NCBI GenBank assembly: GCA_044892525.1
Contig: CM097887.1
Location: forward strand, 72,478,001 to 72,542,000
DNA length: 64,000 nt
Direction of reading: 5' to 3'
DNA from: Schmidtea polychroa
Lineage: Eukaryota
Numbering within the stretch: position 1 is the first letter of the stretch; each line of letters opens with the position of its first letter. Positions 28,651-64,000 of the stretch are shown here, in pieces. Under the pieces are notes generated by a model. That model saw nothing but the letters and a program-made list of their open reading frames with translations, did not search any database and was not told the DNA's origin. A program made the position numbers and the translations under genes.

Positions 28651-29344
28651 TTTTGCAAGACTCATTTCATGAATTTTTGTCGAAACACTTATCAGTTAGG
28701 ATACTGCAATTGCAAAACTATAACATATGCTCTATTGAGCAAGTTATCTTCTTGTATGTTAGCCAATCCGGCCAATTGCTTTAAATATGAGAGAAAGACA
28801 TCCAGATTTCCGTTTCATGGGCGCTTTCGAAAAAAAGTGTGAAACAGTACCATTTCGATTGCATCGCAACATCCATTATCATTTCCCATAAAATTGTCGT
28901 ATACTAAAAACTAAAGATGGTGAAGAGACTATCATGGGTCATGGTTTCAGATACGTGAAAGTGCATAAAAGGTCATTTTGTGATTTTGAATTAACTTATT
29001 GTGGTTAAGATATGTTTAAATATAGTCAAATTGCTTTTCTGTACAAAATTAATTTATGGAATATATTAATAAATTATAGAAAATAATATCCGAAAATTTT
29101 AGAAATTTTAAATAATTGATAAAATTATTTAATAAGAAAAAATAATAAATTTATAAACTAAAATAATTTAATTAAACCAATTCCAAGCATTTTTAAGAAT
29201 TTTATTTAGAATGTTGTTTTAATATTAATAAAAAAATTATAATTTAATTTTTATCTATAATTTAATTTTTATATCAAATTTAACATATTAAATTAAAGTA
29301 TTATATTATTTTAATGTTTATATATTTTAAATGTATATCTAGAT

Positions 29345-45000: not shown

Positions 45001-46231
45001 ATCCGAGCTGAGTCCATTCAACTTAGTGTCTGAGACCATCCGATGCCCATTGGCCATATCCCTGTCTCTTAATACTATCTACGCACCAGAAAAATTTAGA
45101 TACTGTTATTATTATATTACAGAAGCTTTTTAACGAAAGGTGAGAAGAAAAGGACGAACTTTGCTATCAAACATGTAATTTAGTAAAACATAATTATACA
45201 GGTATCATAAGTAAATACGAATGTATACAACAATTAAAAATAAATTATTACTGTTAGTTCCAAATGCATGATCGCCAAATTGAAGTGTTTGTCCAAGTGA
45301 ATTATACGAAGTGTTAGAAAATATGAATGGGTTGTATTGAGTAGTCTATTAGAGTGAAAAAGTAACAGTCAAGTTTTTGTAAAAAAATTATTAAAACTAC
45401 CTATTAGAGTGAAAAAATAACAGTGAAGTGTCCTCTGAGAAGGACCTTTATAGTTTTATGTTTGCGCTTTTAACCAATCACAGTCGAGTAAGCATGTTGT
45501 ATTTTCCAAAATTTTTGTATAATTTTAAAATTTAGTTCCAATCATTTTGATTATTTTGTTTTAATTTTCAACTAAATTGTTCAATTTTCTTTTACATTAT
45601 TTTATTTTCTCGCTCTGAATGGTTTATGGATCACTCTTTTCGGTCTTGTGTTTTCTAACTTATCTATCGTTTGCTACTTTTTGCGTTTGTAATTTTAAAT
45701 ACCTTTGTTTTTATTTATTCTTATCTTATCTTGTTTAATTTGTTTTATTTAATGTTTTATATTATTTAACTGAACTTCTTGCTTTTGCGTGCTGTTTAGG
45801 TTTCTCTGTCGACAATTCACTGTAAGAAAAGAATTAAAATGGAAATCCTATTCTAAGAAAAATGAAACTTTATTTTGATTCTTAGCACAACAATAAATAT
45901 ATTTCATAAAAAACTATTTTTAATTGATTAGGTCTAATAAAAGAACTCCTATACAAAGAACATTATTATCAACAACTGCCCACACTCATCCCGTTTCTAG
46001 TCTCAGCACTATCGGAACTCACAATGCACACAGTTTATTAAGTTTGAGTACTGACGGTAAAATGTGCACATGGAGAATGGAAATGCTCAGTCAACCGATA
46101 GAAAGTTTTCAATTATCAAACTCAAAAAGTAAAGAAATAACTTCAACTTGTATGGAATTTCTTAACAATGATAACAAATTTGTTGTGGGCGGTGAAGATG
46201 GAAATGTTTATTTGGCTTCTCGAATCGGAAG
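36052..46231 (+). CDS. DYNC1I: Cytoplasmic dynein 1 intermediate chain, 5' part; exons ~36052-36237, ~36299-36429, 36476-36547, 40641-40794, 40841-41158, 45932-46231; remaining exons not in the window
   Basis: [34 protein letters not shown]...[28 protein letters not shown]...[31 protein letters not shown]...[17 protein letters not shown]. Phases are consistent; the intron 1 boundaries are less certain. Confidence 0.9.
37424..38784 (+). mobile_element. Decayed Tc1/mariner-family transposon
   Basis: Inverted repeat ATAAGTCTCCGTCTCTAAAACTAAAATAAAACAACA at about 37505 and 38735-38768; remnants [20 protein letters not shown] and [14 protein letters not shown]. Confidence 0.85.
39053..39363. mobile_element. 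piggyBac-type MITE
   Basis: TTAA followed by CCACTTGCGCTAT; inverted ATAGCGCAAGTGG just before the N gap. Confidence 0.7.
39364..39515. other. Assembly gap (N run)
   Basis: 152 N bases. Confidence 1.
43100..43540 (+). pseudogene. piggyBac (PGBD-like) transposase C-terminal remnant
   Basis: [17 protein letters not shown] motif and a Cys-rich tail (CYKQL...ICIQCF) across frames. Confidence 0.55.
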
Positions 46232-46599
46232 GTGAGAAATTAATATATTATTATTATTTTATTTTATTATTAATATTATTATTTATTTTATTAGTATTAT
46301 TATGTTTTCTATTTTCATTATTAATCTATTATTATTTTTATTATAAGAAAACGCCAATCAAACATTCTTTTCACGATATTTTTCGATAGTTTTCCTGTCA
46401 TCATCAAGTGGGATATAATAACTCATTAAATTAAGGATTTTAAACAAAATCAATACATACAATATACAAACATTATTTTAAAACATTTAAAATACAAGTA
46501 TTCACTGCATTCTGCACATTAATTTTCGGATTCAACGAGTTTATCAATAACGCCTAACAAATTACACGTTCCAAATAATTATCGAAAATTTTTAATAAA

Positions 46600-46900: not shown

Positions 46901-47289
46901 CTGACAATACTAACACATATTTAGGTTCATCATCCTTGCTAACACTATTTAATTTATTTAACTCATCAGACTCACATGCCTCAACAAAATCACACCCAGA
47001 TTTTCTCAAACATGGATCCTTAGGATTTTTAATAAATTTGTCAACAGTCTATTTTACCATAATTAATAAAAAAGATTTTGAATAACCCTTCTGCATTAAC
47101 AATTCTATCAATTTGTCAACACTTGTTACTGAATGTTCACAAGTAGAAGACAAAGACCATGATTGTTTTATTATTATTTTTATTATTAATATTATTATTT
47201 ATACTATTATCATTATTAATCTTTTATTATTTTTATTATAAGAAGACGACAATCAAACATTCTTTTCATGATATATTCAAGTTTCAACC

Positions 47290-47447
47290 CCTTCACCATA
47301 TTTCTTTTATACTTGAATTCACAAAAACCTTTGGTTTATAAAGGTATGTGGATGATATTTTTCTTATATTTGAAAATCAAAGTCATGTTGATCCGTTTTT
47401 GCATTATACGAATAGTTTACATAAAAACATTGTATTCACGTGTGAGA
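47290..47447 (+). mobile_element. Penelope-like RT fragment truncated at the giant element boundary
   Basis: KPLVY.RYVDDIFLIFENQSHVDPFLHYTNSLHKNIVFTCE (YVDD and HxNIxFT motifs); similarity stops at about 47447. Confidence 0.75.
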
Positions 47448-47614
47448 CGTTGAAAAAATCATCACATGTTCAATTTCGGGCTTTACGGGTTGTCGCCTTG
47501 TCAGATCAAGGATTATCGTCATCATCAGGATTATTATGATCGGTTTGTTTCTCATACTACTGATATACATTTAGTAATTTTATACACATTTATATACATC
47601 GCTTTTTGTCGGTT

Positions 47615-48339
47615 TTAATTTTGTCGTTTCTTTTTAGGGTTTTTCTCTCGGATTCGCATTAATTTAGACTCCGCTTTAATGACTCTATGTCGAAGTTCCG
47701 GCAACGTTTCTAGTTGTCTATCTTTCTCCTGGACCTTGTCTGTCAAGTGTCTTATCTCTCTTTTCAAGGTTTTTATCTCCTTCTTCTTCTCTTTCAGGTT
47801 CCGTTCCAGTTCCAATTGTAGGAAATCATTTTCCTCTGGGTCGTTTGTCTTTGAGTTTTGTTTCTGCCGTTTTGTTTCTATTTCTCGATATTTATTGTTC
47901 CATTTTTCCATTTCTGCGTTTTCCTGTACTTTTACTTCCAGCTGGTTTTCTAGTTCCCTGATAGTTTCCTGTCGTTTCCTCGCTTCCATCTTCCAGTAAT
48001 CTTCGATCACTTCGTTTTTGCCTTGAGACTGGCTCTTTCCTGCCATAATTCTTCCGCGATCTTCTCCCAATTTCTCCCTCGCTTTCTTTGATCGTGAAGC
48101 CATTCATTTTCCTCCTCTACCTCTTTCTTTACTTCTTCTAACAAGGTATATTCTTTTTTCAATACTTTAATCATTTTTCGATTATCTCTCCATCTTTCCA
48201 CTAATCTTTCGTTTTCTTGTCTCTCCTCTTGTAATTCTTCCTTGATAGTTTTCTTCCTCTCCACTTCTTCTACTTCAATTTCTCCCTCTTCTAGCTCGAT
48301 TATAGATGTTATGATGGGTCGTCCGTTTTCAGTGTTCAT
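47615..48339 (-). CDS. Coiled-coil accessory protein (~241 aa after restoring one A at 48015-48019)
   Basis: ORFs 48007-48339 and 47615-48103 join as ...SLKAK-NEVIEDYWKME... with one added A; E/K/R-rich heptads. Confidence 0.65.
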
Positions 48340-48513
48340 TTTCTATAATATATACATAATTAATAATTGCGCTATAGTGCGGCTTATACGTATACATCTA
48401 TATGTAATTATATAATCGGGGTTACAGTCCCGTAAATATTTTTATCGTACTATTAATTTTTTTGTTGGGATACAGGTCCCGATTTTTATATTTTTTATCT
48501 TTTCTATTTATCT

Positions 48514-49551
48514 TTATACAAAGGTCTCTTCCTGACCTACATACCCTTCATCGCTTTCTATTGACGTTTGTAGTTGTATTGCGATGGGGTCGAATGGGAT
48601 GTAGTACCGGGGAATCTGCGCTCTAAGCTCCTGAACTTCGTCTCTTAGCGCTCTTGACACATTGAGTTCCTCGTCCAGCAGGTATGTTAGATACCTGGTT
48701 TCGTCGTCCCTTACTTCGATCTGTTTTTCTAACTCTTCCGCTTTTTCGCCGTTCTCCCATTTTTTGATCTCCTTTTCGAGGTTCTTGATATTTTCGTCAT
48801 ACATCTTTCTCTCGTTTTCCAATTTCTTGTTCTTACCGGCTAGCACTATATTCCTTTGTTCTAGTGGCCCCTTATAGCCGTTATTGTCTCTTTCAAGGTC
48901 TGCCACCTTATTTACGAGTTCAACGATTCTACCTGACTGTTGCAGGATCATCTCTTCCATGGCGGTATTCTCCTGTTCCTTCATAGACAGTTTCATGGCC
49001 AGATGCCTTTCAAATTCCACGGCCTTGGTCTGCCAGGTTTGACTTCTAGCGGCGATTTTTCGGAGCCTTCTTAGCTCTTCTCTCTGATCCAGATTTTCTT
49101 CCCATTTCCCTTGTTCACTCTCGTATTCCAATCTCTGCGGCAATTCTCTCATTTCTTTTTTGATTTCTCGATGTTGTTTTTTCCACTTTCTGGCTTCTGC
49201 TAATAGTTGGCGGGTCTTTCTTTCCTCCTTTTGTTTTTCTATTTCCCGCTTCTTATTCTCATCAGTGAGTCTTTTTCTTGACTCCTGTACCAGTTGCTTC
49301 AGGTAATGCCCGTGTGCCTCTTGCCTGGTACTTTCTAATGCTGACCATTTAGCGGCTCTTTTGCAGGCCTCGGCCTCCTCCCGTAAATTCTGCACTAACC
49401 ACTGGAACTGGTGGTTTTCCCATTCTCTCGCTTCTTCGAGGAAATTTCGCGTTTGGTTTGATAATTGTGCCATCACTTTGGCCCATCTTTCTCGGTGCAC
49501 TCTGCCGATCCTCACTCCGCTGCTTGGGACTTCGGTTCGTTCCTGTGTCAT
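48514..49551 (-). CDS. 345-aa coiled-coil accessory protein, unknown function
   Basis: Intact ATG-to-stop ORF, charged and helical, between AT-rich spacers. Confidence 0.75.
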   Translation of the reverse strand: MTQERTEVPSSGVRIGRVHRERWAKVMAQLSNQTRNFLEEAREWENHQFQWLVQNLREEAEACKRAAKWSALESTRQEAHGHYLKQLVQESRKRLTDENKKREIEKQKEERKTRQLLAEARKWKKQHREIKKEMRELPQRLEYESEQGKWEENLDQREELRRLRKIAARSQTWQTKAVEFERHLAMKLSMKEQENTAMEEMILQQSGRIVELVNKVADLERDNNGYKGPLEQRNIVLAGKNKKLENERKMYDENIKNLEKEIKKWENGEKAEELEKQIEVRDDETRYLTYLLDEELNVSRALRDEVQELRAQIPRYYIPFDPIAIQLQTSIESDEGYVGQEETFV

Positions 49552-49773
49552 TTTTGTCTGAATAACGATATTATCAACTCAACGTCGCACATTTATATTT
49601 GTTCTATTATTTATTTATTGTTCCCATTCGACATAGGTGGGTTGTTTTTAGAAGTTTTCCGCTTAAGTTTACCTTTAGTGAATTTGGGGATTTTTCCTAC
49701 ACTATTATATAATATTTTACTGGATATATACGCCGATATTTACAATTTAGTATATACAAAATTATTCGTCTCT

Positions 49774-51161
49774 CTACTCAGTCCTACTCTTCCCGTCTCG
49801 CCTCACCACTATTTTTATGTATATAGTGTCGTTTCTCGTCATGTCTTCTACTTTCCGCTGTAGGATGAAATTCGGTGCTCCGGTTGCTGGTCCTTCTTCT
49901 TCCAAGGGCCTTTGGTAACATACGAGGTTTCCCGCTGTATGGAAACTCTGTTCATGTATACTTTGATGGTTCATCATTGCGAGGTCTATTTTTGCTTTGA
50001 ATGGCCATTCTATTAACTCGTCGTATAGCCCTTTGCACATCAAGAAGAATACTGAGAAATGCGTTCCGTATGCACTTCCATCCCCGTTGTGGTATGCTTT
50101 CATTTTCATTTTATACCCGTTTTTCCATGAGTAGAATGCTGGACTTAGTAATGTTGTATCCTTTCCATTTCTCGCTCTCTGCATCTTTTCTTTTACTCCC
50201 GTTATTTTCCATAGGTATGGAGCCGTTGGTATTAATTCGTTGAGGTTCAATTCGCTTACTTTTTGATGTAGTTCTTTCACCATAATGTTGCTAGTTTCCA
50301 CTAGATCTGTCTGTATCTTTGTACTTGTTCTTGCCTCTTCGAATGCTTCCTTTTCTAGCAATAGCTCTTTTACCAACGCTTTTAGCGAGATCATTTCTTT
50401 TTCTATGTTTTCGGTTTTCCTTTCGTTTTCTTGTAATACAGTTGACCATATTTCCGCGTGTGTTGATACGTTTTCTGCTAGATGTTGGGGTAATTCTCCT
50501 CGGTGTAATTGTTTCTGACATCCCCATTTTCCTAGCACACACGTTATCTTTTTCCTTTCACATTCTCTGAGATGTTGAGCGAGTTTTATTACTCCAGATT
50601 TATCGCATTTATTGGGACATTCTCCTCTGAATTCCGCGCATACTTTTTCCTCTTGTAAATTATGATGTTGACTAGTTAATTTTCTTCGGGTATCGGTCTC
50701 TCCGCAATATTCACATTTTTCTAACCTTTCTATGCATCGACTTTGATGCTCTTCCTCTTCTTTGCTTTAATCTCTTCCTGGCAACGTTCGCATTGACTGA
50801 TTTTATACTCACACTTCTCTATATGTTGCTTCACTCCCCATATCACTCCTCGCCAATTGCACGGGGTGTTTTTACATCCTAAATTTGCATTTAACATATC
50901 TTTCACAGCTGCTTTATCTTCGTTTGTATCTCCCAAACTTGTTATCATGGTTTCTTTACATACTGGGCACCATTGTGGTCCCTTCTTTATTATCTCCTCT
51001 ACACATTCTTTGCACATTCGACATCCGCATCTGGTTTGGTGAGGTTCTTTTAATAAGCTCTTGCATATTCCACACGTTACATGGTTGTGTATTCGAATTG
51101 TGGTGGACTTTCTGACTTGTTCGACAATCTCTTTGAATTCTTCTCGTTGTCGCTTATCCAT
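49774..51161 (-). CDS. Full-length TRAF-family protein (RING, TRAF zinc fingers, coiled coil, MATH), ~462 aa, one 1-nt frameshift at 50761-50763
   Basis: RING CGIC...CGCRMCKEC...CPVC; ZnF HIEKCEY..C..C, H..RC..RLEKCEYC, CPNKC...HLREC; MATH YLWKI...SPAFYSWKNGYKMKMKAYHNGDG..YGTHFSVFF..WPF. The intervening frame 50760-50539 is open and in frame with ORF 49774-50538. Confidence 0.9.
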
Positions 51162-51251
51162 TTCTATAATTATATATATACATATATTCGTTACTGGTAC
51201 AGTTTCGTATTTTTATTTACAGTTATTTACATTTTTTGTTTTAGGTTATAT

Positions 51252-51635
51252 TTATTGGCTGGAAGAGTCGGCCTCTTGTCCGCCCTCTTCCCTACTGGTT
51301 AACCATTCTGACCAGTCTTCTATCTCCTCTCGCTCCATCTCTTCAGCGATTCTCATTAACTCCTCTTCCTGTCCCTGGCTGTATCGCGTTATTCGCTCTA
51401 TTTCTTGCTGCATTTGCTCCATTTTTATTCGTTGGTCTTCGATTATTCTTACATAACTGAAGCCTTTATTTAAACTTTCGACTAAGCTTCTTTGTACAGC
51501 GAGTCCTTGTTCCTGTAAATTCGAAATCACTTGAGTTAACATTGCACATTGTTGTTTCCACATCTCTTCGGTTGTCGTACTGTGATTTACTTCCTCGCCT
51601 ATTCGCTCCATTCTTAATTTATATATACTTTTCAA
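51252..51635 (-). CDS. 127-aa coiled-coil/acidic accessory protein
   Basis: ATG-to-stop ORF with a helical middle and acidic C-terminus. Confidence 0.6.
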   Translation of the reverse strand: MKSIYKLRMERIGEEVNHSTTTEEMWKQQCAMLTQVISNLQEQGLAVQRSLVESLNKGFSYVRIIEDQRIKMEQMQQEIERITRYSQGQEEELMRIAEEMEREEIEDWSEWLTSREEGGQEADSSSQ

Positions 51636-51779: not shown

Positions 51780-53908
51780 CTATATTCGTGAGTTTGGAGG
51801 GCGCTGAGCATTCCAGGCCTCCACCCACTGTTCCTGCTTGATTTTACTTGGTCGTTCTACACGATGTTGAAAATTTCTCATTCTGGTCATCTCTAGTTCT
51901 CCGCGATGCCGTCTATCTTTGATTATTTTTATTGTCCCCCCCGTTATGATTAAAAAGGCCCCTGTTATTATTATTCCGCTGATCCACATCATCTGTTTTA
52001 CGCTTATAATTTCCAATTTTTCCTTGTTCGTTATTGTTGATATTGTCTCTGTACTTTTCGGGTTACTGCCTTTGCTATTTCCTTTTATCATTCCTCGTAT
52101 TCTTGCTATCTCCTCGTTCATACCTTCCTTTGCCATCTTTTGTATTTTTTCCATCTCTTCCTCTGACACATAATTGTCCTGATATTTCTCACTGGTTTTT
52201 TGCGTTTTCCTTGCTCATCTTTTTCATCATTGAATTTTCTTTTCCTCCCTCTTTTCCCAGGGTATCGTCGACATTCTCTTTCTGGACCGTTTCTCAGGAT
52301 ACAGACCGTATATTCCTTTGGTGGTTGTTGTTGCGTTACATATTGTAGACAGTTTTCTCCTGGTCCTAGCCTTGAAATACACACTTTGTGCTCTTTTCTT
52401 GGTTGAAGCTGTGTTATCACTATTTCACCTCCTTTACTCAGGTGTACCTCTTTCCATTTGACTTTTGTTATCTTCTTCCCGTTTCGATGTTGGTACGCTT
52501 CTTGTATTCCCACTTCCGTTATTGGTTCTGCATCTTCATTTTTTAACACTAGTCTCTGATAAGCTCTAGACATACATCTTCCTAATATACACCTTTCTTT
52601 TAAATCCCATTCTTCTTTTAGATCCCATTGTTGCTCTTGTACTTGCTTTTTCTTTTCTTGTTTTAGTTCTTCCTCTTTGTTGTCCTTATTTTCCGTTTCT
52701 TTGGCTTCTTTTATCGTTCTCATTCCTCCCTGGGCTGTTATCATTTCCACCATTGTTAATACGAGTATCATTATCATCATATTTGTCTCCATTTCTTTGT
52801 TGGTAAAAAGTAGGCATACCCTCTGTTTTCCAATATTCGTCTTTTCTTCTTGCTTCATTCGGTTTCCCGGGTTATCCTCTTCCTTTTTCGTACTTGCGTT
52901 GTTATTTTCTTGATTATTCTCCTCTGGTTTCTCGTTCTCTTTATTCCCGTTTCGACTCTTCTCATTATTATTGTCGTCTTTATCGTCTTTATCTTTATCG
53001 TCTTTATCTCCCCCGCTGTCGTTTAAAATGTCGTCCTCGACATTTATATCGTTCAACAATCTGCGATATGCTGTTAGCACTCTATTTCTTGCTAATTTTG
53101 CTTCGAATTCGAACTCTTTTCTGCCTGTTGCTGCATGTCTCTTTCTATTCCATTCTTTTACCAGTTCTCTCAATTGTATACGACGATGTTTTCCGATTCG
53201 CTTTTGTTCGTTTAGATTTTGCGTGAATTTGAGGTCTTCTCTGTTCAATACGATCATTATGATTTTCGGAGTTCCTCCTTTTGTTAATGTATTTTTAACC
53301 ATGGCATTTTCTCCGTTTTCATAGAACTCATTTATATTTATTGCATATTTATTACTTTGCGGTATTTTCCAAGTTAACAGTAACTTCATGGCTTCTAAGT
53401 TTTTCCGTATCGTATTCCACTGGAATTGTGACGTATTTTTACAGATATTTTCCACCTCAGTTTTTGTAGCATTTTTACAAATGAATCTAATCATTTCCAG
53501 GTTTGGTTGTATTGTTGCCCAATCCATGGTAGAATTCCCTTCGTTTGATATTTCGTCAAGCCTTGATCCTGATTGATGTAATATATGTAATGTTTTCGGG
53601 TGTATATTTGTTATTGCTGCATACATCATTGCTGTTTCTCCTTGTTCATTTTTTGCATTAGATTCTTCTCCTAAGTCTTTAAGAATTCTTATGATGGTTA
53701 TCGCTCTGTTTTCCTTTGCTGCTAGTATTGCTTGTTGTAATGGTGTTCTTGAATCTTTTGTTGGTATGGTGAACGCTAGTGGTATGAATGTTTTTATTTT
53801 ACCTATGTCTAAATTTGTAGTTTGATCTCTTGCGTAGGTATGTACTGTTTTTATTATTTTTGTCAGTATTGCTTCATCAGATAAATCTCGCATTTCCTCA
53901 AAGAACAC
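51780..53908 (-). CDS. Ankyrin-repeat module followed by an internal signal sequence, ectodomain and TM (frameshift near 52211)
   Basis: ANK motifs RTPLQQA, GETAMMYA, GNSTMDWA; hydrophobic MMIMILVLTMVEMITA; ITQLQPRKEHKVCIS (FN3-like); TM WISGIIITGAFLIITGGTIKII in ORF 51780-52169, joined by one added A. Confidence 0.75.
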
Positions 53909-53968
53909 CTCTTTGGCTTTGCGTATTATTATCTCTTGGTCTGAGTCGTTGTTATATCAGTTGTTATA

Positions 53969-55870
53969 TCAAGTCGTTGTTATATCAGTTATTATTTGAT
54001 CGACTTGTTCCTCAGACTCTCTGATTTTTGCTTTCTTTGTTTTTAACTTTTTCTTGTTTGAACTATTAATGCGTTCCTCCGCCGTTAGAACTTGAATAAT
54101 ACTGAGGTAAGTTTCTCGAATGTTATTCATATTTTCCATCATATATAAAACACACACGGTTTCCCAATATTTTACTTGTACTCTATCGGTGAATTGAGAT
54201 ATGGATTTTTCAAAATTAGTGATTCGCTTTCTGATCAGGTGTTCGTCTTTATGGTTTGAGAACTTTACACCTCGCTGTAATAGTTGATTTGGGATTTCAA
54301 ATAGGTGATGTCCTCTCATTGCTTCTCTCATCAAGGTGTTTTCTCCTTTGGTAAATGTTTCGTTTATGTCTACCATATAATCGTTTTTGATCGGGTTTCT
54401 CCACGAAATTAGTACTCCAGTAATTGATATTAATTTCCCTTTGATAGCGGTTAATAGCCCGTCGTACATGTTTCCTATTTCTCTGTTATCCTCGTATGAC
54501 AATAGATCTACTAAGGTTATGAATGCTCCGGTGCTTTTTCCTTCGATTGCATGATGTAGTGCATTTTTCTGATCGTGATCTTGTGTGGTTATCTTTGATC
54601 CGGTTTCCAGCAACGCTATTATGATATCCTTAGTTTTATCTCGATTTGCTGCTATCATTAGTGGAGTGTAACCTTGGTTGTTTTCTTGATCTGTCGAAAT
54701 GTTACAATCGCGAAATGCTTCAATCGTTTCTAGTATTTGTTCATTATTACCAACCTTTAAAAGCTTGTGCAGTGGTGTATCTCCATAGTGGTCTGTGATT
54801 GTGAATAATATAGGCCATTGGCTTTTAACTACCCTGAGCAATGGGTGTATTCTTTCTCGATTTGCATAGTTTTCTATCATTGTTAGCAGACCTCCCAATA
54901 TCTCAAAATCTAATCTGTCTTTTGCCCATCCGGGTATTTTAGCCTTTACCTCTTTTATGATTTTCTCTGCCTCTGAGGGTTGTAATCCCAATCGATTGTT
55001 TGTTGGTTCATTTATCTGCTGTAACATATTTATTCTATACGTTTGTGATCTTGTTGTTAAGGTACGTCCTTCTGGCTGACTGGTGGCTGTTTTCGGTATT
55101 GGCTTACATCGTGCCACATTTACATATATTGGCCTTGTAAAGGGATTGTTTACCAATCGTACTCTTACGTTAGTTTCTCCGACGAATAAAATCTCATACG
55201 GTCCTTTGCCGTTTCGTTGCAATTTTTTGGTGGTTCCTGGAATTAATTCTGGTGTTTCGATCATCACCCAATCACCTGTTTGGAACGTATGTTGTTTGAC
55301 GTTTTTCTTCCTATCGTGTAGATCTTTGTAACTCTCTTGATAAAACTTTATATTTAATCCCGCAGTTTCCCAGATTTCTTGCATTCTTTCCTTGAACTTG
55401 GTTACATAATCGTCTATTTCCATATATTGAGATATGGGTGGCTGATACTCCAAGTCCATTGGCATATTACATTCTCTGCCGTACATCAACTTGAACGGAC
55501 TCATCTTTGTGGAAGCGTGAATTGACATTCTGTAAGCCATTAAACACAATTTTATATACTCATCCCAATCTCGTTGGTGACGGTCTACGTAATTTAATAA
55601 CATCTGAATGAGCGTTCCATTGAATCTTTCTGTCATACCATTTGTTTGTGGATGATATGGTGATGTTCTCAGTTTTGCAATCTTGAAGTAGTTGGTTACT
55701 TCGTTCATTATTTCACTCATGAAATTTGTTCCTTGATCGGTTAGTATTTGTTTTGGTGTTTCATACCTACAGCATATTTCCTCTACCAGTATTTTCGCGA
55801 TTGTTTTTGCTTTCTGGTCCGTCATAGCGAATGCTTCAGGGAATTTTGTTAAATAATCTGTGATCACCAA
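53969..55870 (-). CDS. Integrase core and GPY/F domain fused in frame to ankyrin repeats
   Basis: VITDYLTKF, ILTDQGTNF, NGMTERFNGTL, GKGPYEI; then YGDTPLHKLL, GYTPLMIAA, QKNALHHAI. Confidence 0.92.
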   Translation of the reverse strand: MVITDYLTKFPEAFAMTDQKAKTIAKILVEEICCRYETPKQILTDQGTNFMSEIMNEVTNYFKIAKLRTSPYHPQTNGMTERFNGTLIQMLLNYVDRHQRDWDEYIKLCLMAYRMSIHASTKMSPFKLMYGRECNMPMDLEYQPPISQYMEIDDYVTKFKERMQEIWETAGLNIKFYQESYKDLHDRKKNVKQHTFQTGDWVMIETPELIPGTTKKLQRNGKGPYEILFVGETNVRVRLVNNPFTRPIYVNVARCKPIPKTATSQPEGRTLTTRSQTYRINMLQQINEPTNNRLGLQPSEAEKIIKEVKAKIPGWAKDRLDFEILGGLLTMIENYANRERIHPLLRVVKSQWPILFTITDHYGDTPLHKLLKVGNNEQILETIEAFRDCNISTDQENNQGYTPLMIAANRDKTKDIIIALLETGSKITTQDHDQKNALHHAIEGKSTGAFITLVDLLSYEDNREIGNMYDGLLTAIKGKLISITGVLISWRNPIKNDYMVDINETFTKGENTLMREAMRGHHLFEIPNQLLQRGVKFSNHKDEHLIRKRITNFEKSISQFTDRVQVKYWETVCVLYMMENMNNIRETYLSIIQVLTAEERINSSNKKKLKTKKAKIRESEEQVDQIITDITTT

Positions 55871-58800
55871 TATATATATATATTCCCTCTATCGGATTCT
55901 GGTAGTGGACCGACTACGTCCATAGATATCATTGTCATTGGTTCGGCTGGTACTGGCATTGGCTTTAAAAGTGCTTTCCATTTTGTTCCCGTGTTTTTTC
56001 TGGTTGCGCAAGTTATACAATTTTTCACCCATTCCGTTACATCTTCGGTCAATGTGGGCCAAAAATACTTTTGTTTCATTCGGGCTAGCGTCTTCTTCGA
56101 TGACATATGTCCTCCGAGTCTTCCGTCATGGTATTGCGTTAGCAAATCTTTACGTCTATTTTCTGGAATGCACATCAGTCTTTTTTCTCCATCCATTATC
56201 AATAACCAGTCCTTTTCTAGTATATATCGATGTCGATGTTTATCCATGTGCTCTTTTAACTTTTGATCTTTCTCATATACTTCTGCTTTCCCTGTTTTCA
56301 CATATTCAATGATTTGCTTCAACTCTGTATCCTCTTGTTGGTCTTTCCGTAATTGGCAAAAATCTAAATCTTCCGCCACCATCAGACATATTCGTTGCAT
56401 TTCGTGATCTACTAAATCTGGAAAGATAAATCTTGACATGCAATCTGCATTGGCATTCGCTCTTCCCGCTTTGAATTTTATGAACGGTGAATATTCTTGT
56501 AACTGCATTGCCCATCGCATCAATCTGCTTGAAGCTTCTTTGTGCTGTCCGAGCCATACTAATGGTTGGTGATCTGTTGTGATACATATTTCGTGTCCCC
56601 ATAATAAATATCGAAAATGCTTAATCGCTTGTATTATTGCTAACGCTTCTCTTTCTGTTACTGAATAGTTTTTCTCATGCTTTTTAAACGTTCTGCTGTA
56701 ATAACCGATTACTCTCTCCTTTCCTTCTTCATCGAGTTGTCCCAGTATTGCTCCGGCTGCATATCCGCTTGCATCTGTTGCTAATAAAAATGGTTTCTTG
56801 AAATCTGGATGTACTAGTATTGGGGCTTCAATCAATTTATCTCGTAAGGTCTCAAATGCTTTTTGTTGTTCTGTACCCCAAATAAACGAAATGTCTTTTT
56901 TCACTAATTCTTGAATTGGTTTCGCAATGCCTGCGTAGTTTTTAATGAATTTCCGATAATATCCGCATAATCCAAGGAATTCTTGAACTTGGGTAACTGT
57001 CTTTGGTGGTGGACATGTTTTTATTTTCTCTATATTTCTGGGATCTGGTTCTTTACCTTTTGCTGACACTATGTGTCCTAAAAACGTAACTTTCTCTTTT
57101 GCCCAATCACACTTTGATGGTTTGAGTTTCAATTTCCATTGTCGTAATCGAACGAACACGTTTCTGATATCTTCCAAATGTTGTTCGAATGTTGCTGAAT
57201 ATATTAATAAATCATCAATGTATACCATACACTGCTTGATCCCGTGTGTGACGAAATTCATGCATCTCTGAAATGATGCGGGGGCATTGGTCAGTCCAAA
57301 CGGCATTTTCCTGAATTGATATAGGTCTCGACCCAATGTGAAGGCCGTTTTCTCTTTGTCTTCCTCTTTGACTTTGATCTGCCAATATCCGCTCTTTAGA
57401 TCTAAAGACGTAAAATATGCGGCCCCCTGTAGCATAAGTAACATCTCATTGATGTCTGGTAACGGGTATGTGTCTCTTTTCGTTACTGCATTTAGTTTCC
57501 GATAATCGATGCAAAATCTCTGGGTACCGTCTTTTTTCTTCACCATGACTACTGGAAATTGCCATGGTGAGCAACTTGGTTCGATCACTTTTGCATCCAA
57601 CATCTTTTGTACTTCTGCTTCCGCTATCTCTTTTTGTTTTTCCGCTAGTTTGTATGGGCGTAATGCAATCGGGGTTTCGTCTATTAGGGGTATTGCGTGT
57701 AACGTGACATCGCATACTGCCAAATCTAAATCCGAAATAGCGAATATATCTTTATATTCTATTAATAATTGTTGAAGTTTTCCCCTTTCATTCTCTGTTA
57801 GCAAGGTACTATCAATTATCCATAATTCGTCATCTGTGGTTGATTCGTTCGTGGCTTTTGGTAACTCGATATCCATCATGGGTGTTAATCTACCCAATCG
57901 TTCATTTTCATATATGATTTTATCTTCCTCCTCGAAATTCGTGATGTTGATTGGTATTTCTCCTTCTTCATTTATCGTTATTATTTCTCGTGCTAAGGGT
58001 AATTCTCGTCTTTTTTCAAAGGATTTACTTGGTTCAAAGATAGCTTCTCCTTCCATTCCAGTATCTACTTTTATTTGACATATCATCTGTGATTTTGCTG
58101 GTACAATTATTTTCTCCGGGCATCTGATTATTGCGTTCATCTTGCATATTCTACCCATTTTGTCTTTTAGACACATTGTTGTTAAGTCGATTACCACTTC
58201 TTTGAACAATTCCGGCATTAAATCTGTTCCGATTATACATGGTTCACTCAGTTTGGGTATTACTGCCAGATAGGTTTCGATTTCATTATCTTGATATCGT
58301 AACGTCGTCCACCATCTTCCTACTACGTCTACGGTTTCTTTACTGCATGCAATAATATGAATAGTTGTTTGTTCAATATCTTTCCAATATTTACTGGGTA
58401 TTTGGTTTATTGCTATTGCTGATACATTCGCTCCAGTATCTATCATTGCGCTCGTCTCTTTCCCGTTGATTTGGATCATGACTGTTACTGCTGCTCCTCC
58501 TGGTGAACTCATTACTGCTATTGTTCTGACGTCATCAGCTTGGTCTACGCTTTTCGTTCTTCGGGTCGGCATATAGTTCATACCTGGTTGACTTGGTAAT
58601 TGTGGATACATATTTTGTGTCATGGTCAAAGCTGCTTGCTGTCCAACGATATCTGGTGGTATATAGCTCCCGTTAGCTATCCAGGTATTTGTTTTTTCTT
58701 TCTCCCAAAATGGTGCTGTTTCTATTTGCCTTTCGTTCGGGTTTCTGCTTGGATACGGGTATTTGTCATTCCCGTTATCATCATCATCACTATCACTGCT

Positions 58801-59181
58801 GTTTGATCGATTTCTAAATCTGTCTAGAAATTTTGGTTTGTTCTTTTTCAGTTGCACCCTTGTTGCTTCCTCATACATTGTTTTCCGAAATCGTCTGCCG
58901 ACTTCCTCGTCAGTTCCTTTTATTTTTGTCAGTATTTTGATTAATCGTTTTATTCTGTGTATATCTTTAGAATGACCGTGCAACACCATTGTTTTCGCCA
59001 AAAATGGTAGGAAGCCTACTATCAATTTCCAATTTACTTTCTTTTCCCTCTTATAGATATCAAAACAAGCTAACATTTGAGTCAATATTACTCTGACAAT
59101 CTGAATAATTAAGATGATTCCCAATATTCCGGCCATCATTTGACCGAACACTAGAAACCTTCCCCACATTGCTTTCATCAT
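55864..59181 (-). CDS. Env TM anchor and tail, aspartic protease, RT, RNase H, integrase zinc finger
   Basis: TM FLVFGQMMAGILGIILIIQIVRVIL; MIDTGANVS; RFCIDYRKLN, LDLKSGYWQI, MPFGLTNAPASFQ, YIDDLL; LATDASGYAAGAILGQ; H...GGH...CITC; MDVVGPLP. A TA-dinucleotide expansion at about 55870-55882 shifts the frame into the integrase ORF. Confidence 0.96.
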   Translation of the reverse strand: MMKAMWGRFLVFGQMMAGILGIILIIQIVRVILTQMLACFDIYKREKKVNWKLIVGFLPFLAKTMVLHGHSKDIHRIKRLIKILTKIKGTDEEVGRRFRKTMYEEATRVQLKKNKPKFLDRFRNRSNSSDSDDDDNGNDKYPYPSRNPNERQIETAPFWEKEKTNTWIANGSYIPPDIVGQQAALTMTQNMYPQLPSQPGMNYMPTRRTKSVDQADDVRTIAVMSSPGGAAVTVMIQINGKETSAMIDTGANVSAIAINQIPSKYWKDIEQTTIHIIACSKETVDVVGRWWTTLRYQDNEIETYLAVIPKLSEPCIIGTDLMPELFKEVVIDLTTMCLKDKMGRICKMNAIIRCPEKIIVPAKSQMICQIKVDTGMEGEAIFEPSKSFEKRRELPLAREIITINEEGEIPINITNFEEEDKIIYENERLGRLTPMMDIELPKATNESTTDDELWIIDSTLLTENERGKLQQLLIEYKDIFAISDLDLAVCDVTLHAIPLIDETPIALRPYKLAEKQKEIAEAEVQKMLDAKVIEPSCSPWQFPVVMVKKKDGTQRFCIDYRKLNAVTKRDTYPLPDINEMLLMLQGAAYFTSLDLKSGYWQIKVKEEDKEKTAFTLGRDLYQFRKMPFGLTNAPASFQRCMNFVTHGIKQCMVYIDDLLIYSATFEQHLEDIRNVFVRLRQWKLKLKPSKCDWAKEKVTFLGHIVSAKGKEPDPRNIEKIKTCPPPKTVTQVQEFLGLCGYYRKFIKNYAGIAKPIQELVKKDISFIWGTEQQKAFETLRDKLIEAPILVHPDFKKPFLLATDASGYAAGAILGQLDEEGKERVIGYYSRTFKKHEKNYSVTEREALAIIQAIKHFRYLLWGHEICITTDHQPLVWLGQHKEASSRLMRWAMQLQEYSPFIKFKAGRANANADCMSRFIFPDLVDHEMQRICLMVAEDLDFCQLRKDQQEDTELKQIIEYVKTGKAEVYEKDQKLKEHMDKHRHRYILEKDWLLIMDGEKRLMCIPENRRKDLLTQYHDGRLGGHMSSKKTLARMKQKYFWPTLTEDVTEWVKNCITCATRKNTGTKWKALLKPMPVPAEPMTMISMDVVGPLPESDRGNIYIYW

Positions 59182-61589
59182 GTTTGACGTGGCTTGTTGA
59201 AAATGATCTGGTGATAATAATAATTCATAATTTTACCTGATTGAAAATTTGTTCCTCCGGTTATGGTAACCATATTTGATAAAATGGATTCTCGCCTTGC
59301 TGGGAATAGTACGTTTAGTCGTGCGGTTTCTAAATCCTCTGGTGAGTACATACCTGCTTTTGACACATCAATTGGTTTGAAATCTTGTTCGGTTGCGAGT
59401 TCTATTAATCCAAACTTTTTAGGTTCTTGTACTTCAGTTTTTACTGGTAACATTATCCATTTCCCATCGGGTTTTTCATAATATGGTCCGTATGCATTTG
59501 AACAGTTAAAGGTGTTCGGATAAAATCCAATTGGGTTCATTATCCTAGTGACGGGTTGGACAAATCTGTTCCGCCCTTTGTAACTGATTTCTAATTCGTT
59601 TGCACATTTCCCTGGCGGGATTGTGGGTTTTCTTGGCATTCGCGCAAACGTCTTAGTACATGCATATGTATACATCACCTCTCCTACCATTCTGCCAAAA
59701 TGTCCATCCGGTAACGGGAGTGATGGCATCGTGTTATCTGGGTGTGTTATTGCGATGGCTAATTTTGTTTTTAGTATCTCTTTATTCAATGAACAGTCAT
59801 TTTGTATGAGATCGTAATATACTTTTTGCATTGTCGTTTGTCCTCGATGAAATAAAAAGTCCATTTTGTTATTGGCATAAAGGTACAACTTCACATCCTC
59901 CGTTGATACTTTTCCTACTGCTCGGTCTATTACTTGTCTTGACATGTAAATGCCTGCGTAGTTCGTCCGATATACTATACTGTCACATTTGGTGGTCTCT
60001 TTTTCTCTGATGAATCTCATACCGATATCTGGATCATCTGTAATTAGTGCAGTTGGTGTTTTTTGTGTTGTGAGTCTTTTTTCTTTGGGGGATGGTGGAA
60101 CTGGTTTTCCATTTTGCATCCTTACGTTTCCATTTTCTTCATCGTCGTCTTCGTTTTCGTAAATTTCTCCTTTTACTTCGTTGAACAAAGCACTTTTTAA
60201 CAATTGGAGTCGGCATTTTTGGGTGTTAGCTTCATATATTATGGTCGAAATTCCCGTCCTACACACGTTTTCCGTAGCTCTGCATGCTGGGTTGGTTTTC
60301 ATTTGATAATTATTTGCGTCGAATTGCGCTTCGTATTCTTTCAACTCCACTGTGTAGGATTCGATTACTACTACCCCCGATATCACTTCTCCTCTGATCG
60401 TGTATGTGCCTCCGTTACATGATCCATCAGTTGATTTTACTCGTCCGGCTACATAGATGCTTTCAGTCTTGATCATTCCGCTTTGTCCGTGTATTGTTAC
60501 CCCGTCTCTGATTCTCATTGCTCCAGTTCTAAAAAGCTCTTTACAGTCTTCTCGTTGTATAGGTACTATTTCTTTATCTAATCCGGGTAATATGAGAGTT
60601 GAATACGAATATTGCCCACAGTAATATGCCAACACCTTCTTTGATACTACGCATTCTCTTGCTTGTGTTCTAATAAAATCTGATTCTTGGTATACATGAT
60701 AGGAGACTTTCTTTTTCACGACATCCAATTTATTCGGAGATGCTTGTCTACATTCCTCTATATCCCTCAAGGAATATTTTTCTCCAATTATCGAATTGTC
60801 GCAGTCGTAAATTGTAAACCCTAATGCTCCGCTTGTGCATAGCATCCATATCATCATGGTCATCATTAGTGAATTAATCGACGCTTTTCTACTGGCGGGA
60901 TCTTTCATTGGCAATTCCCATTCTATTTCGTTTAGTAATTTCTTCAACCTGATTTGCATTGATCTTTCTTGCTCGTTTTTTCGTGGTGCTTGTATAAGCC
61001 TTTTCCACCCGCCGGCGCGGATAATATGTGGTTCGATTGTATTTTCAATGATTGTCACCGTCATTTCAACGTGGTTTGCAAATTGTTTGTTAGGTATTTT
61101 TCTCGCTGCTAATCCCATCAAATTGTACATTAAATACGTTAGTACCACTAGATGATGTTCGTCGTCGTTCGTGTTTACGGTTAATTGTTCAATTACCTTC
61201 CTTGTCTCCTCCCAATCTGTTTTCGTGGTTTTCGTTTTTTCTTTGATTAATTTCGGAATTATTCCGGATATTGCATTCCATAGTTGTCTGGCGTCTACGC
61301 TTGCTACTTTTCGTTGCCATAACCGTCTCAATTGCGTGTTTGTTATTATTAACATATCCTTTACTAGTTCTCGTATCCATTTTTCGCCTCTTTCAATCGT
61401 TGGTTGGGCCTCTTTTAGGTCCCACACTATTTTATCCAATTTTTCCAATCTGATTTGTCCTTGCTCTTGTTTTAGTTGTTCTCTGGTTTTAAATTCGGGG
61501 TTTTCTCCTTGTTTCTTGGGTCTTCCTTTTGCCCGTTTTTCCATCGTTGTTCCAGCTTCTCTGGTCATTTCATAATTCGGGTTTCTCAT
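59178..61589 (-). CDS. Putative Bcl-2-like helical domain, signal peptide and gB/chuvirus-like (class III) fusion glycoprotein ectodomain
   Basis: BH2-like EPHIIRAGGWKRL; signal LMMTMMIWMLCTSGALG followed by FTIYDC; Cys-patterned ectodomain with GEVMYTYAC...CANELEISY...FVQPVTRI...C...W typical of chuvirus-like glycoproteins. One added A at 59231-59234 links it to the TM-PR-RT ORF. Confidence 0.8.
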   Translation of the reverse strand: MRNPNYEMTREAGTTMEKRAKGRPKKQGENPEFKTREQLKQEQGQIRLEKLDKIVWDLKEAQPTIERGEKWIRELVKDMLIITNTQLRRLWQRKVASVDARQLWNAISGIIPKLIKEKTKTTKTDWEETRKVIEQLTVNTNDDEHHLVVLTYLMYNLMGLAARKIPNKQFANHVEMTVTIIENTIEPHIIRAGGWKRLIQAPRKNEQERSMQIRLKKLLNEIEWELPMKDPASRKASINSLMMTMMIWMLCTSGALGFTIYDCDNSIIGEKYSLRDIEECRQASPNKLDVVKKKVSYHVYQESDFIRTQARECVVSKKVLAYYCGQYSYSTLILPGLDKEIVPIQREDCKELFRTGAMRIRDGVTIHGQSGMIKTESIYVAGRVKSTDGSCNGGTYTIRGEVISGVVVIESYTVELKEYEAQFDANNYQMKTNPACRATENVCRTGISTIIYEANTQKCRLQLLKSALFNEVKGEIYENEDDDEENGNVRMQNGKPVPPSPKEKRLTTQKTPTALITDDPDIGMRFIREKETTKCDSIVYRTNYAGIYMSRQVIDRAVGKVSTEDVKLYLYANNKMDFLFHRGQTTMQKVYYDLIQNDCSLNKEILKTKLAIAITHPDNTMPSLPLPDGHFGRMVGEVMYTYACTKTFARMPRKPTIPPGKCANELEISYKGRNRFVQPVTRIMNPIGFYPNTFNCSNAYGPYYEKPDGKWIMLPVKTEVQEPKKFGLIELATEQDFKPIDVSKAGMYSPEDLETARLNVLFPARRESILSNMVTITGGTNFQSGKIMNYYYHQIIFNKPRQT

Positions 61590-62595
61590 TATCTGTTCTT
61601 GGCAATGAGCTGTCGTTGTTTCTCAGCCATTCATTCCATTCGTCTATTATTTTGTCCGTTTGACCTTCTGGTGTTACTTTTGTTGGTCCTTTTTGTCGTT
61701 GGAATTGTTCGTCGGTTTCGGTTTCTGTTGTATTATCGATAATCTCCTCGATACTTAGCTTATTTGGCTGCTGATAGCTAGTTGACGGTTGGCTTGTTGT
61801 CCATATTTCCGCCCCTGTCGGCCATCTTACCAGAATTGGTGATCTTTCTCCAGCTCCTTCATCGCTGTCTTCTAATATGATTTCCTCGATTTCCTCAGTT
61901 TCATTCGATTTACTCGCCACTTTGTTAGGGCTTGGTGTACTCAAGCTACCTTTCGTGGGTTTACTGGATTTACTTTTCCTTTTGATTGGTTTTCCCAATG
62001 TTTCTGCCATTGTCAATACATTGATCTCCCCCAATCTCATGGGTGTTATTCCGACATCTGCATTATCATCTAACGATTTTCCGAATAGTTGTAGGTGAAA
62101 TGGAGTTTCGTATGCTAATTTCTTTTTTAACTCTCTGATCTTTGTTGTTGGATGTACTTCTGTATCCTCAATGCTTTTGTCGGGATACTTGACTCGGATA
62201 CGATACCTTTCCTGGGTATCTTGTGCCCACTCTTGGTTTCTCCATTTTCTAATAATTTGTTCTAGCTGTTCTGGGTACCATTCGTTATATTGTCGGTATT
62301 CCTCAATCGCTTTCGCCATTTCTCTTAGATTGTGGATATTCTCTGATGTCTTTAGGATGATGTTAGCCAATGCTACTACTTGTCGTTTTTGATTTTTTGC
62401 TCCCGTTGCTAAGATATCACCTAATTGTTTATATCTTTCCTTCTCTTCTCGTTCTCGAGCTTCCATCGCTTCCTCGCTGTCCATATCGGCATATTCGCGT
62501 TCTTTCTTTCTCATCGCATGAATATGTCTGGTTTCCGTTTCACTTTCGGACGTGACGTCCGTTTCGCTTTCCTCGTCGTCGTTCGTGTTCACCAA
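61570..62595 (-). CDS. Acidic repeat, helical region and ubiquitin-like domain (polyprotein segment)
   Basis: ESETDVTSESE; Ubl-like RYRIRVKYPDKSIEDTEVHPTTKIRELKKKL...LQLFGKSLDDNADV (about 62008-62208). Confidence 0.65.
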   Translation of the reverse strand: MVNTNDDEESETDVTSESETETRHIHAMRKKEREYADMDSEEAMEAREREEKERYKQLGDILATGAKNQKRQVVALANIILKTSENIHNLREMAKAIEEYRQYNEWYPEQLEQIIRKWRNQEWAQDTQERYRIRVKYPDKSIEDTEVHPTTKIRELKKKLAYETPFHLQLFGKSLDDNADVGITPMRLGEINVLTMAETLGKPIKRKSKSSKPTKGSLSTPSPNKVASKSNETEEIEEIILEDSDEGAGERSPILVRWPTGAEIWTTSQPSTSYQQPNKLSIEEIIDNTTETETDEQFQRQKGPTKVTPEGQTDKIIDEWNEWLRNNDSSLPRTDNEKPEL

Positions 62596-62779
62596 TGTCT
62601 GTTTCTACGAAAATTCCTTTCCTGACTTCCCACTCTTTATTTTCCGCATTCCACATCCTTTCCCAGGGAGTTCGTCTGCAAGATCTAGTACTCAGTTTCT
62701 TTATTTTCCCTTGTAGTTCCTTTTCGTTTAACCATTGTTGATGAATTTCAATTATTTCTACTGATTTTTGGTATAGCGT

Positions 62780-64000
62780 TTACATCCTGTCGCGTATCTC
62801 TTTCTGGTATGTCACATCTCTTGTTCGGAATTCGTCCATTGGCAATATTCTAATTATTTGATGATTATCCCACATTCCCATTTCGCTTAACGAGGTGTCG
62901 TCCTCAGCCCGTAATATTATTTTGTCGTATATCATGACTACATTATCTATCATACCATCGCTACTCTCGCTTCGCACCTTTTCTGTTATCTCTTGGTTTA
63001 TCTTTGATACTAAGTCATCCACCGTACTTTGATTACTCATTTTTATTCGTCGTTTCTCCTCGTTTGGTAACCATATGGTTATTTCCAATCTCTGCGGTTG
63101 CGTTTCTTTTATTCTTCCATATTTGTGGATCAAATTTATGGTTCTCCAATCGCTCATTCTGAGCAATTCTGTATCTCGTAATCGGCTCATTAGTTCATGC
63201 ATAGCTGGAGTTCGTTTTGCTATGAGCAAATCCCAGTTGTCTTCAACTTGTTCTTGGATTTGTTTGATTAATTTATCTAGATTTCGTCGCAAAGTACATT
63301 GTTTTATTTGTTCTAATTTTAGCTTGATATTAAAATCGTATTCGGCCTTGGCGTCCTTCGCCCATTCGTAAACGTTGGCTGGTTGTTTCTCTTTATGCAA
63401 CTTCAATATTTGAGTTTCCCCTGGCCAGATCAATGCATCTATTAGGTGCATGTCTGGTTTAATTTGTTCTCCTTGGTATTGATATAGATACTCTTTCTTT
63501 CTCGAGCTGCCCCAATGTTCTCTTATCCAATCAAAAAGCTCGTCTGTGACTGTACTTTTTATCCATATTCTCTCGAGCTCTTTACTCGTTCCGATTTTTA
63601 TTACATAGCGTGTTGTCTCCGCTTGTTTCATTTTTTCCATATACTTCTTTATTATCGTTTTCTCCTCGCTTGGTATCAAGTCTTTTTCGTTTCTTTCTAG
63701 TTTCATTATCTTTTGTAAGAAGCGTTTATATGGTATAAGGTCGATGAACTCCTGGTTTCTTACTACCACTGGAAGTATTTCCTTTACTTGTTTTATCGCT
63801 TCCTCTCTTTCTTTTCTCAATTTCATCTCGATATTCTCATCTTCACTTTCACTTGTCACGTCGCTTTCACTCTCGTCTTCATCTGCTCCGATCTTCTCTC
63901 TTAGTTGTTCGATATTTTCATTTAACTGCAATGTTTCTCCACCCAGGCTACTCACGTAGTCCTCATCGTCATCTGTTGACAATACCTTCTTTGTCGTCCT
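62780..64000 (-). CDS. Polyprotein segment with acidic repeat and two ubiquitin-like domains; open to the window edge
   Basis: ESESDVTSESE; Ubl1 ...YQYQGEQIKPDMHLIDALIWPGETQIL (about 63395-63610); Ubl2 LEITIWLPNEEKRRIKMSNQSTVDDLVSKI...MIYDKIILRAEDDTSLSEMGM (about 62843-63091). The frame stays open for about 60 codons past the TAA at 62780. Confidence 0.7.
   Translation of the reverse strand, partial: RTTKKVLSTDDDEDYVSSLGGETLQLNENIEQLREKIGADEDESESDVTSESEDENIEMKLRKEREEAIKQVKEILPVVVRNQEFIDLIPYKRFLQKIMKLERNEKDLIPSEEKTIIKKYMEKMKQAETTRYVIKIGTSKELERIWIKSTVTDELFDWIREHWGSSRKKEYLYQYQGEQIKPDMHLIDALIWPGETQILKLHKEKQPANVYEWAKDAKAEYDFNIKLKLEQIKQCTLRRNLDKLIKQIQEQVEDNWDLLIAKRTPAMHELMSRLRDTELLRMSDWRTINLIHKYGRIKETQPQRLEITIWLPNEEKRRIKMSNQSTVDDLVSKINQEITEKVRSESSDGMIDNVVMIYDKIILRAEDDTSLSEMGMWDNHQIIRILPMDEFRTRDVTYQKEIRDRM

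Follow-up and report, generated by a model that had tools for sequence, protein, structure and literature searches.

The giant Gypsy-like LTR elements of Schmidtea mediterranea known as Burro or GYPSM1 (Jurka 2007 and Grohme 2018, per PMC6431247) are the described systems closest to the element considered here. TRAF/MATH cargo has been published in Burro elements, including Burro-2 to Burro-4, and as an accessory ORF in Dugesia tigrina (PMC6431247). Burro1 has also captured an IAP, which is reported to protect stem cells from apoptosis (Lee et al. 2026, as cited in PMC13465017). Like the TRAF described below, this B-IAP is a host-derived gene of a cell-death pathway on a Burro element, but it belongs to a different protein family, and its function has been reported, whereas that of the TRAF is predicted (PMC13465017). 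The presence of TRAF domains and other cell-death genes in such elements is already known.

We analyzed 64,000 nucleotides of Schmidtea polychroa DNA (G000:C3:72478001-72542000; this whole stretch is called the window), which contain part of an element with the same layout as published Burro elements (PMC6431247). Whereas MATH lies in the polyprotein or in an upstream ORF in the published account (PMC6431247), the family of the window element carries a whole RING-finger-coil-MATH gene 3' of pol. No description of a whole RING-to-MATH TRAF in this position, of its selection, or of its origin was found in a search of main texts in the full-text literature; Grohme 2018 and Lee 2026 may hold one. 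The TRAF is a real, selected cargo and a fuller form of a known element cargo. What is new is its full architecture, its retention without an IAP, and an old origin that is likely to have been single.

The TRAF gene and the element that carries it

Two overlapping minus-strand frames, 50730-51212 and 49774-50766, together make up the TRAF gene (Table 1). The unbroken 462-amino-acid protein of sister copy L003 (P0001) aligns to the window as residues 1 to 135 (positions 51161-50757, 98.5% identity) and residues 133 to 462 (positions 50766-49777, 97.6% identity). Therefore, the window gene is colinear with its intact relative and free of introns, and it is disrupted by one single-base frameshift near codon 133. 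A reading of the window made earlier without database searches (the sequence-only reading) had described an intronless TRAF with RING, zinc fingers, coiled coil, and MATH domain, of about 462 amino acids once one base was added. The architecture was borne out by the sister-copy alignment, Pfam, a structure model, and Foldseek. The length is that of the protein in intact sister copies; the window copy is unable to produce the complete protein.

In the window pieces Pfam recognized the RING (zf-C3HC4, E 1.3e-5) and the MATH domain (TRAF-mep_MATH, E 5e-25), together with a zf-TRAF match below its cut-off (E 1.1e-4); for TRAF-C/MATH, PF21355 and PF22486 were both above cut-off. The AlphaFold model of P0001, made with a 28-row alignment (mean pLDDT 88.1, pTM 0.44), contains the RING, the fingers, a helix of about 70 residues (232-303), and a strand-rich beta-sandwich (316-455). 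Its best Foldseek matches are the TRAF domains of TRAF3, TRAF2, and TRAF1 (E 2e-16 to 4e-16). The features expected of the TRAF family, a TRAF-C/MATH beta-sandwich, a predicted TRAF-N coiled coil, and an N-terminal RING with fingers, were all found. A search for homologous proteins yielded 1 protein out of 3343 candidates and was uninformative.

In alignments the RING has a Cys at the position of a zinc-binding His in vertebrates, as do planarian host short TRAFs. It aligns to TRAF6 and to TRAF5 RING-finger 1 without the TRAF2-type insertion. Within residues 1-232, 30 of 32 Cys/His positions are invariant across 48 copies drawn from two subfamilies of the element. The MATH domain retains its core. 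The serine-rich pocket of vertebrate TRAFs binds receptor-tail motifs, and this pocket is missing from the element TRAF, in which the receptor-binding loop reads FHTAGNLVCY where TRAF3 has FKPDPNSSSF. The SSS of TRAF3 aligns to LVC, or to QIA in the second subfamily, and loop residues 413-415 differ between the two subfamilies; the basic, Tyr, and Asp positions beside the SSS-equivalent site are retained.

The element lies on the minus strand, from about 47,466 to about 8.9 kb past the window end. It is composed of a 5' RING ORF, gag, zinc knuckles, a Monjiviricetes-type fusion glycoprotein, protease, RT, RNase H, integrase, ankyrins, and accessory ORFs, the TRAF being the second of the small accessory ORFs 3' of pol. 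The gag, knuckles, 5' RING ORF, and 5' LTR of the window copy are located beyond the window (in L011). This is a dead copy, with several further breaks and with its last ORF and 3' LTR missing. The sister copy L084-L086 spans about 31.1 kb with LTRs of 4.3 to 4.5 kb. In the three sister copies checked, the LTR pairs are more than 99% identical and have TG..CA ends, and 4-base target duplications are visible at two of the three. A span of more than 30 kb with long LTRs, and the presence of gag, CCHC knuckles, an env-like gene, PR-RT-RH-IN, and ankyrins, identify the element as Burro type. The region before env is 49% identical to that of a Burro1-type element; as for BCL2-like or ubiquitin-like motifs there, Pfam gave no BCL2 match and a weak ras-binding (ubiquitin-fold) match (E 0.02).

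Table 1. Features of the Burro-type element within the window (positions in the window)
Positions	Strand	Feature	Basis
47466..48339	-	Additional accessory ORF in two pieces, followed by the 3' break of the window copy	ORFs, sister copies
48514..49551	-	345-aa charged, coiled-coil-like accessory ORF directly downstream of TRAF	ORF, comparison
49774..51161	-	TRAF accessory gene; single-base frameshift near codon 133 (about 50757-50766)	Frames, Pfam, sister copies
49804..50217	-	MATH / TRAF-C, residues 316-453, serine-rich receptor-binding loop replaced	Pfam, alignments, Foldseek
50254..50469	-	Coiled-coil helix (TRAF-N), residues 232-303	Model secondary structure
50473..50876	-	TRAF-type zinc-finger region, about residues 96-230, frameshift inside	Weak Pfam zf-TRAF; Cys/His invariance
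50958..51074	-	RING domain, residues 30-68, Cys for His	Pfam, alignments
51164..51173	-	Splice-acceptor-like AT-rich tract ending in TAG, right before the TRAF ATG (putative acceptor)	39/40 copies; 20/20 in second subfamily
51252..51611	-	119-aa helical accessory ORF upstream of TRAF; syntenic in Burro1-type elements	ORF, comparison
52118..53956	-	Ankyrin-repeat part of polyprotein tail	Pfam Ank_2 E 4e-8
53969..55888	-	Integrase core and ankyrin repeats	Pfam rve, Ank_2
55864..59232	-	Fusion glycoprotein C-terminus, protease, RT, RNase H, integrase zinc finger	Pfam
59178..61622	-	Monjiviricetes-type fusion glycoprotein (env-like), between gag and pol	PF24664 E 5e-58
61570..64000	-	Polyprotein region between Gag zinc knuckles and env, without MATH	Pfam

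Burro1-type elements are also present in the genome (L096-L105, L108, L112), and their 4,791-codon frames agree in size and content with the published Burro1 polyprotein of 4,873 aa. Their RT and RNase H are 93% and 90% identical to those of the window family, and the two families have the same LTR start and primer-site sequence. The sequence common to both just inside the 5' LTR (L084:9807 onward, L100:7945 onward) is presumably a tRNA-Pro primer site. The 93% RT identity (window 55864-59232 versus L102) stands beside about 45-54% for gag, env, and the integrase tail, and may reflect either extreme constraint or an exchange of pol. Burro1-type elements have a full-length TRAF in the same slot (L102:6577-7998), 32% identical to the window-family TRAF and in the same clade. 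They differ in carrying, where checked, a BIR-RING IAP gene (L102:8142-9317) directly after the TRAF and before a homolog of the 345-aa ORF, and a second MATH inside the polyprotein (L101:5144-5605). Neither IAP/BIR nor polyprotein MATH was present in any of four window-family copies examined across gag through the 3' ORFs, nor in the 10 kb covered for the second subfamily, whereas BIR was present in all three Burro1-type 3' regions examined. Because the window element lacks both the polyprotein MATH and the BIR/IAP gene, its identification as Burro1 was rejected.

Several other features of the element and its surroundings were observed. The 5' LTR region of the window copy (L011:5044-8860) is 70-88% identical to those of three sister copies, far less than the internal region (96-98%), and for this reason the window copy may be a recombinant between subfamilies. 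The LTR contains a 253-aa ORF with no Pfam match and an acceptor-like TTTCTAG before it (L086:5291-6049, L011:5815-6375); L109 and L122 have similar sequence close to host TRAF genes. A tandem repeat of about 117 bases is located in the 5' leader ahead of gag (L011:2864-3692). On the plus strand, window positions 29318-30022 and 45927-46235 are WD40-type host exons. The second, which we take to be similar to dynein intermediate chain, has a GT donor at its end, about 1.2 kb away from the element, and the element may sit antisense in a host intron. Translations judged by eye point to decayed ordinary Gypsy pol fragments at 1-2232 and 6018-8249 (plus strand), a decayed Penelope-like endonuclease piece at 13695-14147 (minus strand), and an RT fragment at the broken 3' end of the element, at about 47270-47465 (plus strand).

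A fixed cargo under purifying selection

To survey other copies, the best 40 of 374 candidate places in a DNA search of the genome with the TRAF were scored. All were full or near full length and 94-100% identical, and a few were near-identical neighbors or duplicates and thus not independent. The TRAF was found in every sister copy fetched (39 other places), with the integrase-ankyrin flank beside it in 39 of 39, one of them cut by a contig end, and with RT linked to it in 36 of 39. The gene is a fixed cargo of the window element's family, and its assignment by the sequence-only reading to the inside of a retroelement stands. Among the same best 40 of 374, a TRAF ORF of at least 450 aa was present in 29, one of which is a fusion, leaving 28 regular intact frames. 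In copy L052 a deletion takes out the 119-aa ORF and joins the end of the upstream ORF to the TRAF in one reading frame. For the second subfamily, whose TRAF has 69% protein identity, the best 40 of 363 candidates were scored and 20 were fetched; the 462-codon frame was intact in all 20.

Across the 28 open copies the mean pairwise dN was 0.016 and dS was 0.131, a ratio of 0.12. Variants shared by at least two copies (100 synonymous versus 58 nonsynonymous) gave 0.14, and singletons gave 0.22. The ratio was similar along the protein (RING and fingers, 0.11; coiled coil, 0.14; MATH, 0.13), and variable sites numbered 61, 54, and 152 at codon positions 1, 2, and 3. These estimates, from pairwise Nei-Gojobori and site-pattern counts, are biased downward because the choice of copies favored similarity to the query and the counts were restricted to open frames. 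Elsewhere in the element the ratio was 0.01-0.02 for RT, RNase H, and integrase, 0.05-0.09 for ankyrin regions, and 0.16 for the 119-aa ORF. In comparison with the second subfamily dS was saturated except in MATH (ratio 0.105) and the ankyrin ORF; the RING was the most conserved part of the TRAF between subfamilies (77%).

It is extremely improbable that the TRAF is a neutral passenger or a processed pseudogene copied along with the element. A passenger would fit the lack of a regular intact frame in the window copy and in 11 of the 39 others. It would also fit the expression results: the sequencing runs listed as containing the TRAF stretch include none recorded as RNA, and the joints listed for four contig sets that we guessed to be RNA, compared with sequence without LTRs, include no GT-AG joint at the TRAF acceptor. 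However, a neutral gene would not be expected to have a dN/dS of 0.12-0.14, a frame intact in two subfamilies with proteins this divergent, or a counterpart at the same position in Burro1-type elements at 32% identity. The sequence-only reading had set against its proposal either a standalone processed pseudogene, marked by an own TSD/polyA and by absence from other element copies, or a dN/dS near 1. No polyA tract was found after the TRAF stop, every copy fetched has the gene, and the ratio of about 0.12 is far below 1. The TRAF is under purifying selection in most of the sister copies, and its protein is almost certainly functional for the element. Selection means that the protein matters to the element; it says nothing on the direction of signaling.

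Origin of the element TRAF

The best 150 of 1,551 candidates in a MATH search of the genome were scored. These matches comprise host genes, the polyprotein MATH of Burro1-type elements, and a class of 487 codons. All four members of this last class that were fetched are full TRAFs 3' of pol in Burro1-type elements. About 94 of the best 150, counted by hand, bear element signatures. In full-length trees the window-family TRAF and the Burro1-type 3' TRAF form one clade (96/95 with 37 rows, 99/97 with 35 rows), which is nested in a planarian short-TRAF group with host genes and Dendrocoelum and Dugesia TRAFs (94/98). This clade is sister to a four-gene C4 host cluster at 95/89 in the 37-row tree, versus an open fork in the 35-row tree, and an alternative donor grouping was not rejected (p-AU 0.32). 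Both element rows were flagged for odd letter make-up in these trees, which, together with long branches, could inflate the element clade and its deep position. In a quick MATH-only tree of 89 of 90 rows (L121 was dropped for a stop), the three element MATH types group weakly (SH-aLRT 87). Host multi-exon tandem TRAF genes form a separate 24-row clade in that tree (SH-aLRT 99), on which ground the element was rejected as the source of the host TRAF expansion.

The host short TRAFs (L107, L114-L117, L119; Dendrocoelum lacteum TRAF-2, -4, and -5; Dugesia japonica TRAF2-like A) are in the same length class as the element TRAF and have the Cys-for-His RING and the finger spacing in common with it. 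They differ in being only 25-33% identical to it, in being low-copy genes outside elements, and in keeping the F/M-K/R-P-D/N loop that the element TRAF has lost. One host TRAF shares 71% identity with Dugesia japonica TRAF2-like A. At G000:C4:28.37-28.40 Mb (L107, L146, L148) the host has a tandem array of four short TRAF genes related to Dendrocoelum TRAF-2 and TRAF-5; two of the four encode nearly identical proteins.

The sequence-only reading had proposed a retro-captured host mRNA, retained as a decoy or activator in signaling, and had called for a phylogeny against host paralogs. Host origin is upheld by the position of the element TRAFs inside the planarian short-TRAF group. The intronless state was rejected as proof of retro-capture: the genomic host paralogs L107, L114-L117, and L119 also run from RING through MATH in one exon, as open frames of 454-487 codons, so missing introns are uninformative on the capture route. 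That reading had also held that viruses hijack host TRAFs rather than encode them, a generalization with exceptions. The best BFVD fold matches are TRAF-like proteins of iridoviruses and giant viruses, which likewise place a TRAF in a virus-type genome. In contrast to the element TRAF, these belong to DNA viruses, mostly have partial architectures, and are 14-25% identical, suggesting a separate origin.

A single old capture from the planarian short-TRAF group is likely, because the window-family TRAF is syntenic with the Burro1-type 3' TRAF and forms one clade with it inside that group. It is improbable that the two families captured TRAFs independently and that the shared clade is a long-branch artifact. 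The 32% identity of the TRAFs beside an RT identity of 93% might suggest independent events, as might the odd letter make-up of both rows. However, in both families the TRAF occupies the same slot, follows a homologous small ORF, and has the same arrangement of acceptor and ATG; support for the clade is 99/97. Furthermore, env, gag, and the integrase tail are also divergent, as noted above, so RT is the exception.

Expression and predicted function

Accessory ATGs of the element tend to follow an AT-rich spacer ending in AG. The acceptor-like tract and ATG of the TRAF are conserved in both subfamilies at the counts given in Table 1 and recur before the Burro1-type TRAF. For these reasons the TRAF is likely made from a spliced subgenomic RNA, although the pattern is only modestly beyond chance (YAG at five of seven ORFs, p 0.007; AG at six of seven ORFs, p 0.054). 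A joint at 47502-50920 was rejected as a likely chance match: its ends read AG..CT, one of its sides spans 20-30 letters, and a check in L106 found nothing. One of the four contig sets, X1, had coverage in all 30 bins, spacers included, and may be DNA.

We propose, with a probability of roughly 0.5, that this fixed, selected accessory TRAF, probably captured once and long ago from the short-TRAF group, tilts host stress signaling toward cell survival. Its RNA would be spliced to the acceptor-like site before the ATG. The protein would oligomerize through the coiled coil and MATH domain and would serve as an adaptor and putative RING ubiquitin ligase on the host TAK1-JNK/p38 and IAP-caspase pathways, the outcome being survival of the cell that expresses the element. 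An active ligase or a RING-dimer scaffold would be consistent with a RING that aligns to TRAF5 and TRAF6 without an insertion and is the part most conserved between subfamilies. Replacement of the receptor-binding loop, and its variation between subfamilies, suggest partners other than those with the usual receptor-tail motif.

A role in survival is favored over the two alternatives below because of the survival roles of host TRAFs and the precedent of the Burro1 IAP. Smed-TRAF-1/2 and -2A/B are required for cell survival (PMC7586133), host TRAFs are needed for planarian cell survival (PMC8807557), and host traf2-1 was an inhibitor in a screen of infection-driven TAK1/MKK/p38 tissue degeneration (PMC4993586). 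Counted against this reading is that the window family has no IAP, the obvious survival partner. A search for the Rel domain of NF-kB (PF00554) gave 0 candidates, and its controls gave no signal either.

The TRAF might instead be an element-internal or counter-defense ligase that ubiquitinates Gag or Env for particle assembly or release, or ubiquitinates a host restriction factor, and that hardly affects cell fate. We regard this as somewhat unlikely. The separate 5' RING ORF and ankyrin arrays of the element, the retention of the TRAF without an IAP, and the shifted MATH pocket are all compatible with such a ligase. However, the full receptor-adaptor architecture is retained in both families, and the sole Burro cargo described as tested in PMC13465017 acts on host apoptosis.

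Also unlikely is a dominant-negative decoy that joins host TRAF oligomers or soaks up partners and so damps an anti-element defense signal. A loop that differs from those of host and vertebrate TRAFs and varies between subfamilies, and is more degenerate still in the Burro1-type TRAF, could belong to such a decoy. A pure decoy would not need the RING and all fingers, yet these are as constrained as MATH (0.11 versus 0.13), and the RING is conserved best of all between subfamilies. In the coiled coil, identity to each of five host paralogs examined is 12-23%, a divergence that speaks against ready mixing with host oligomers.

To the known example of a planarian retroelement that uses a captured IAP, the findings add a complete TRAF that is maintained by selection in two element families. 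One of these families has no IAP, so elements with TRAF only can be compared directly with TRAF-plus-IAP elements by RNAi. A more far-reaching proposal, which we consider quite unlikely, is that Burro has carried a working TRAF since early triclad evolution. The TRAF of the IAP-less family would then, by itself, be a second domesticated survival gene required by planarian stem cells or for regeneration, expressed by retrovirus-style splicing, and hundreds of copies would contribute part of a piRNA-silenced, "expanded" TRAF pool.

Planarian TRAF/MATH gene counts and lists of PIWI-degraded "traf mRNA" may include element cargo. A TRAF expansion has been reported in planarians (PMC6109357), as has piRNA degradation of many traf and ankyrin mRNAs (PMC6824462; PMC11663942), and both may partly reflect such cargo. 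BURRO1 and BURRO4 RNA rise after smedwi-2 RNAi (PMC8532177).
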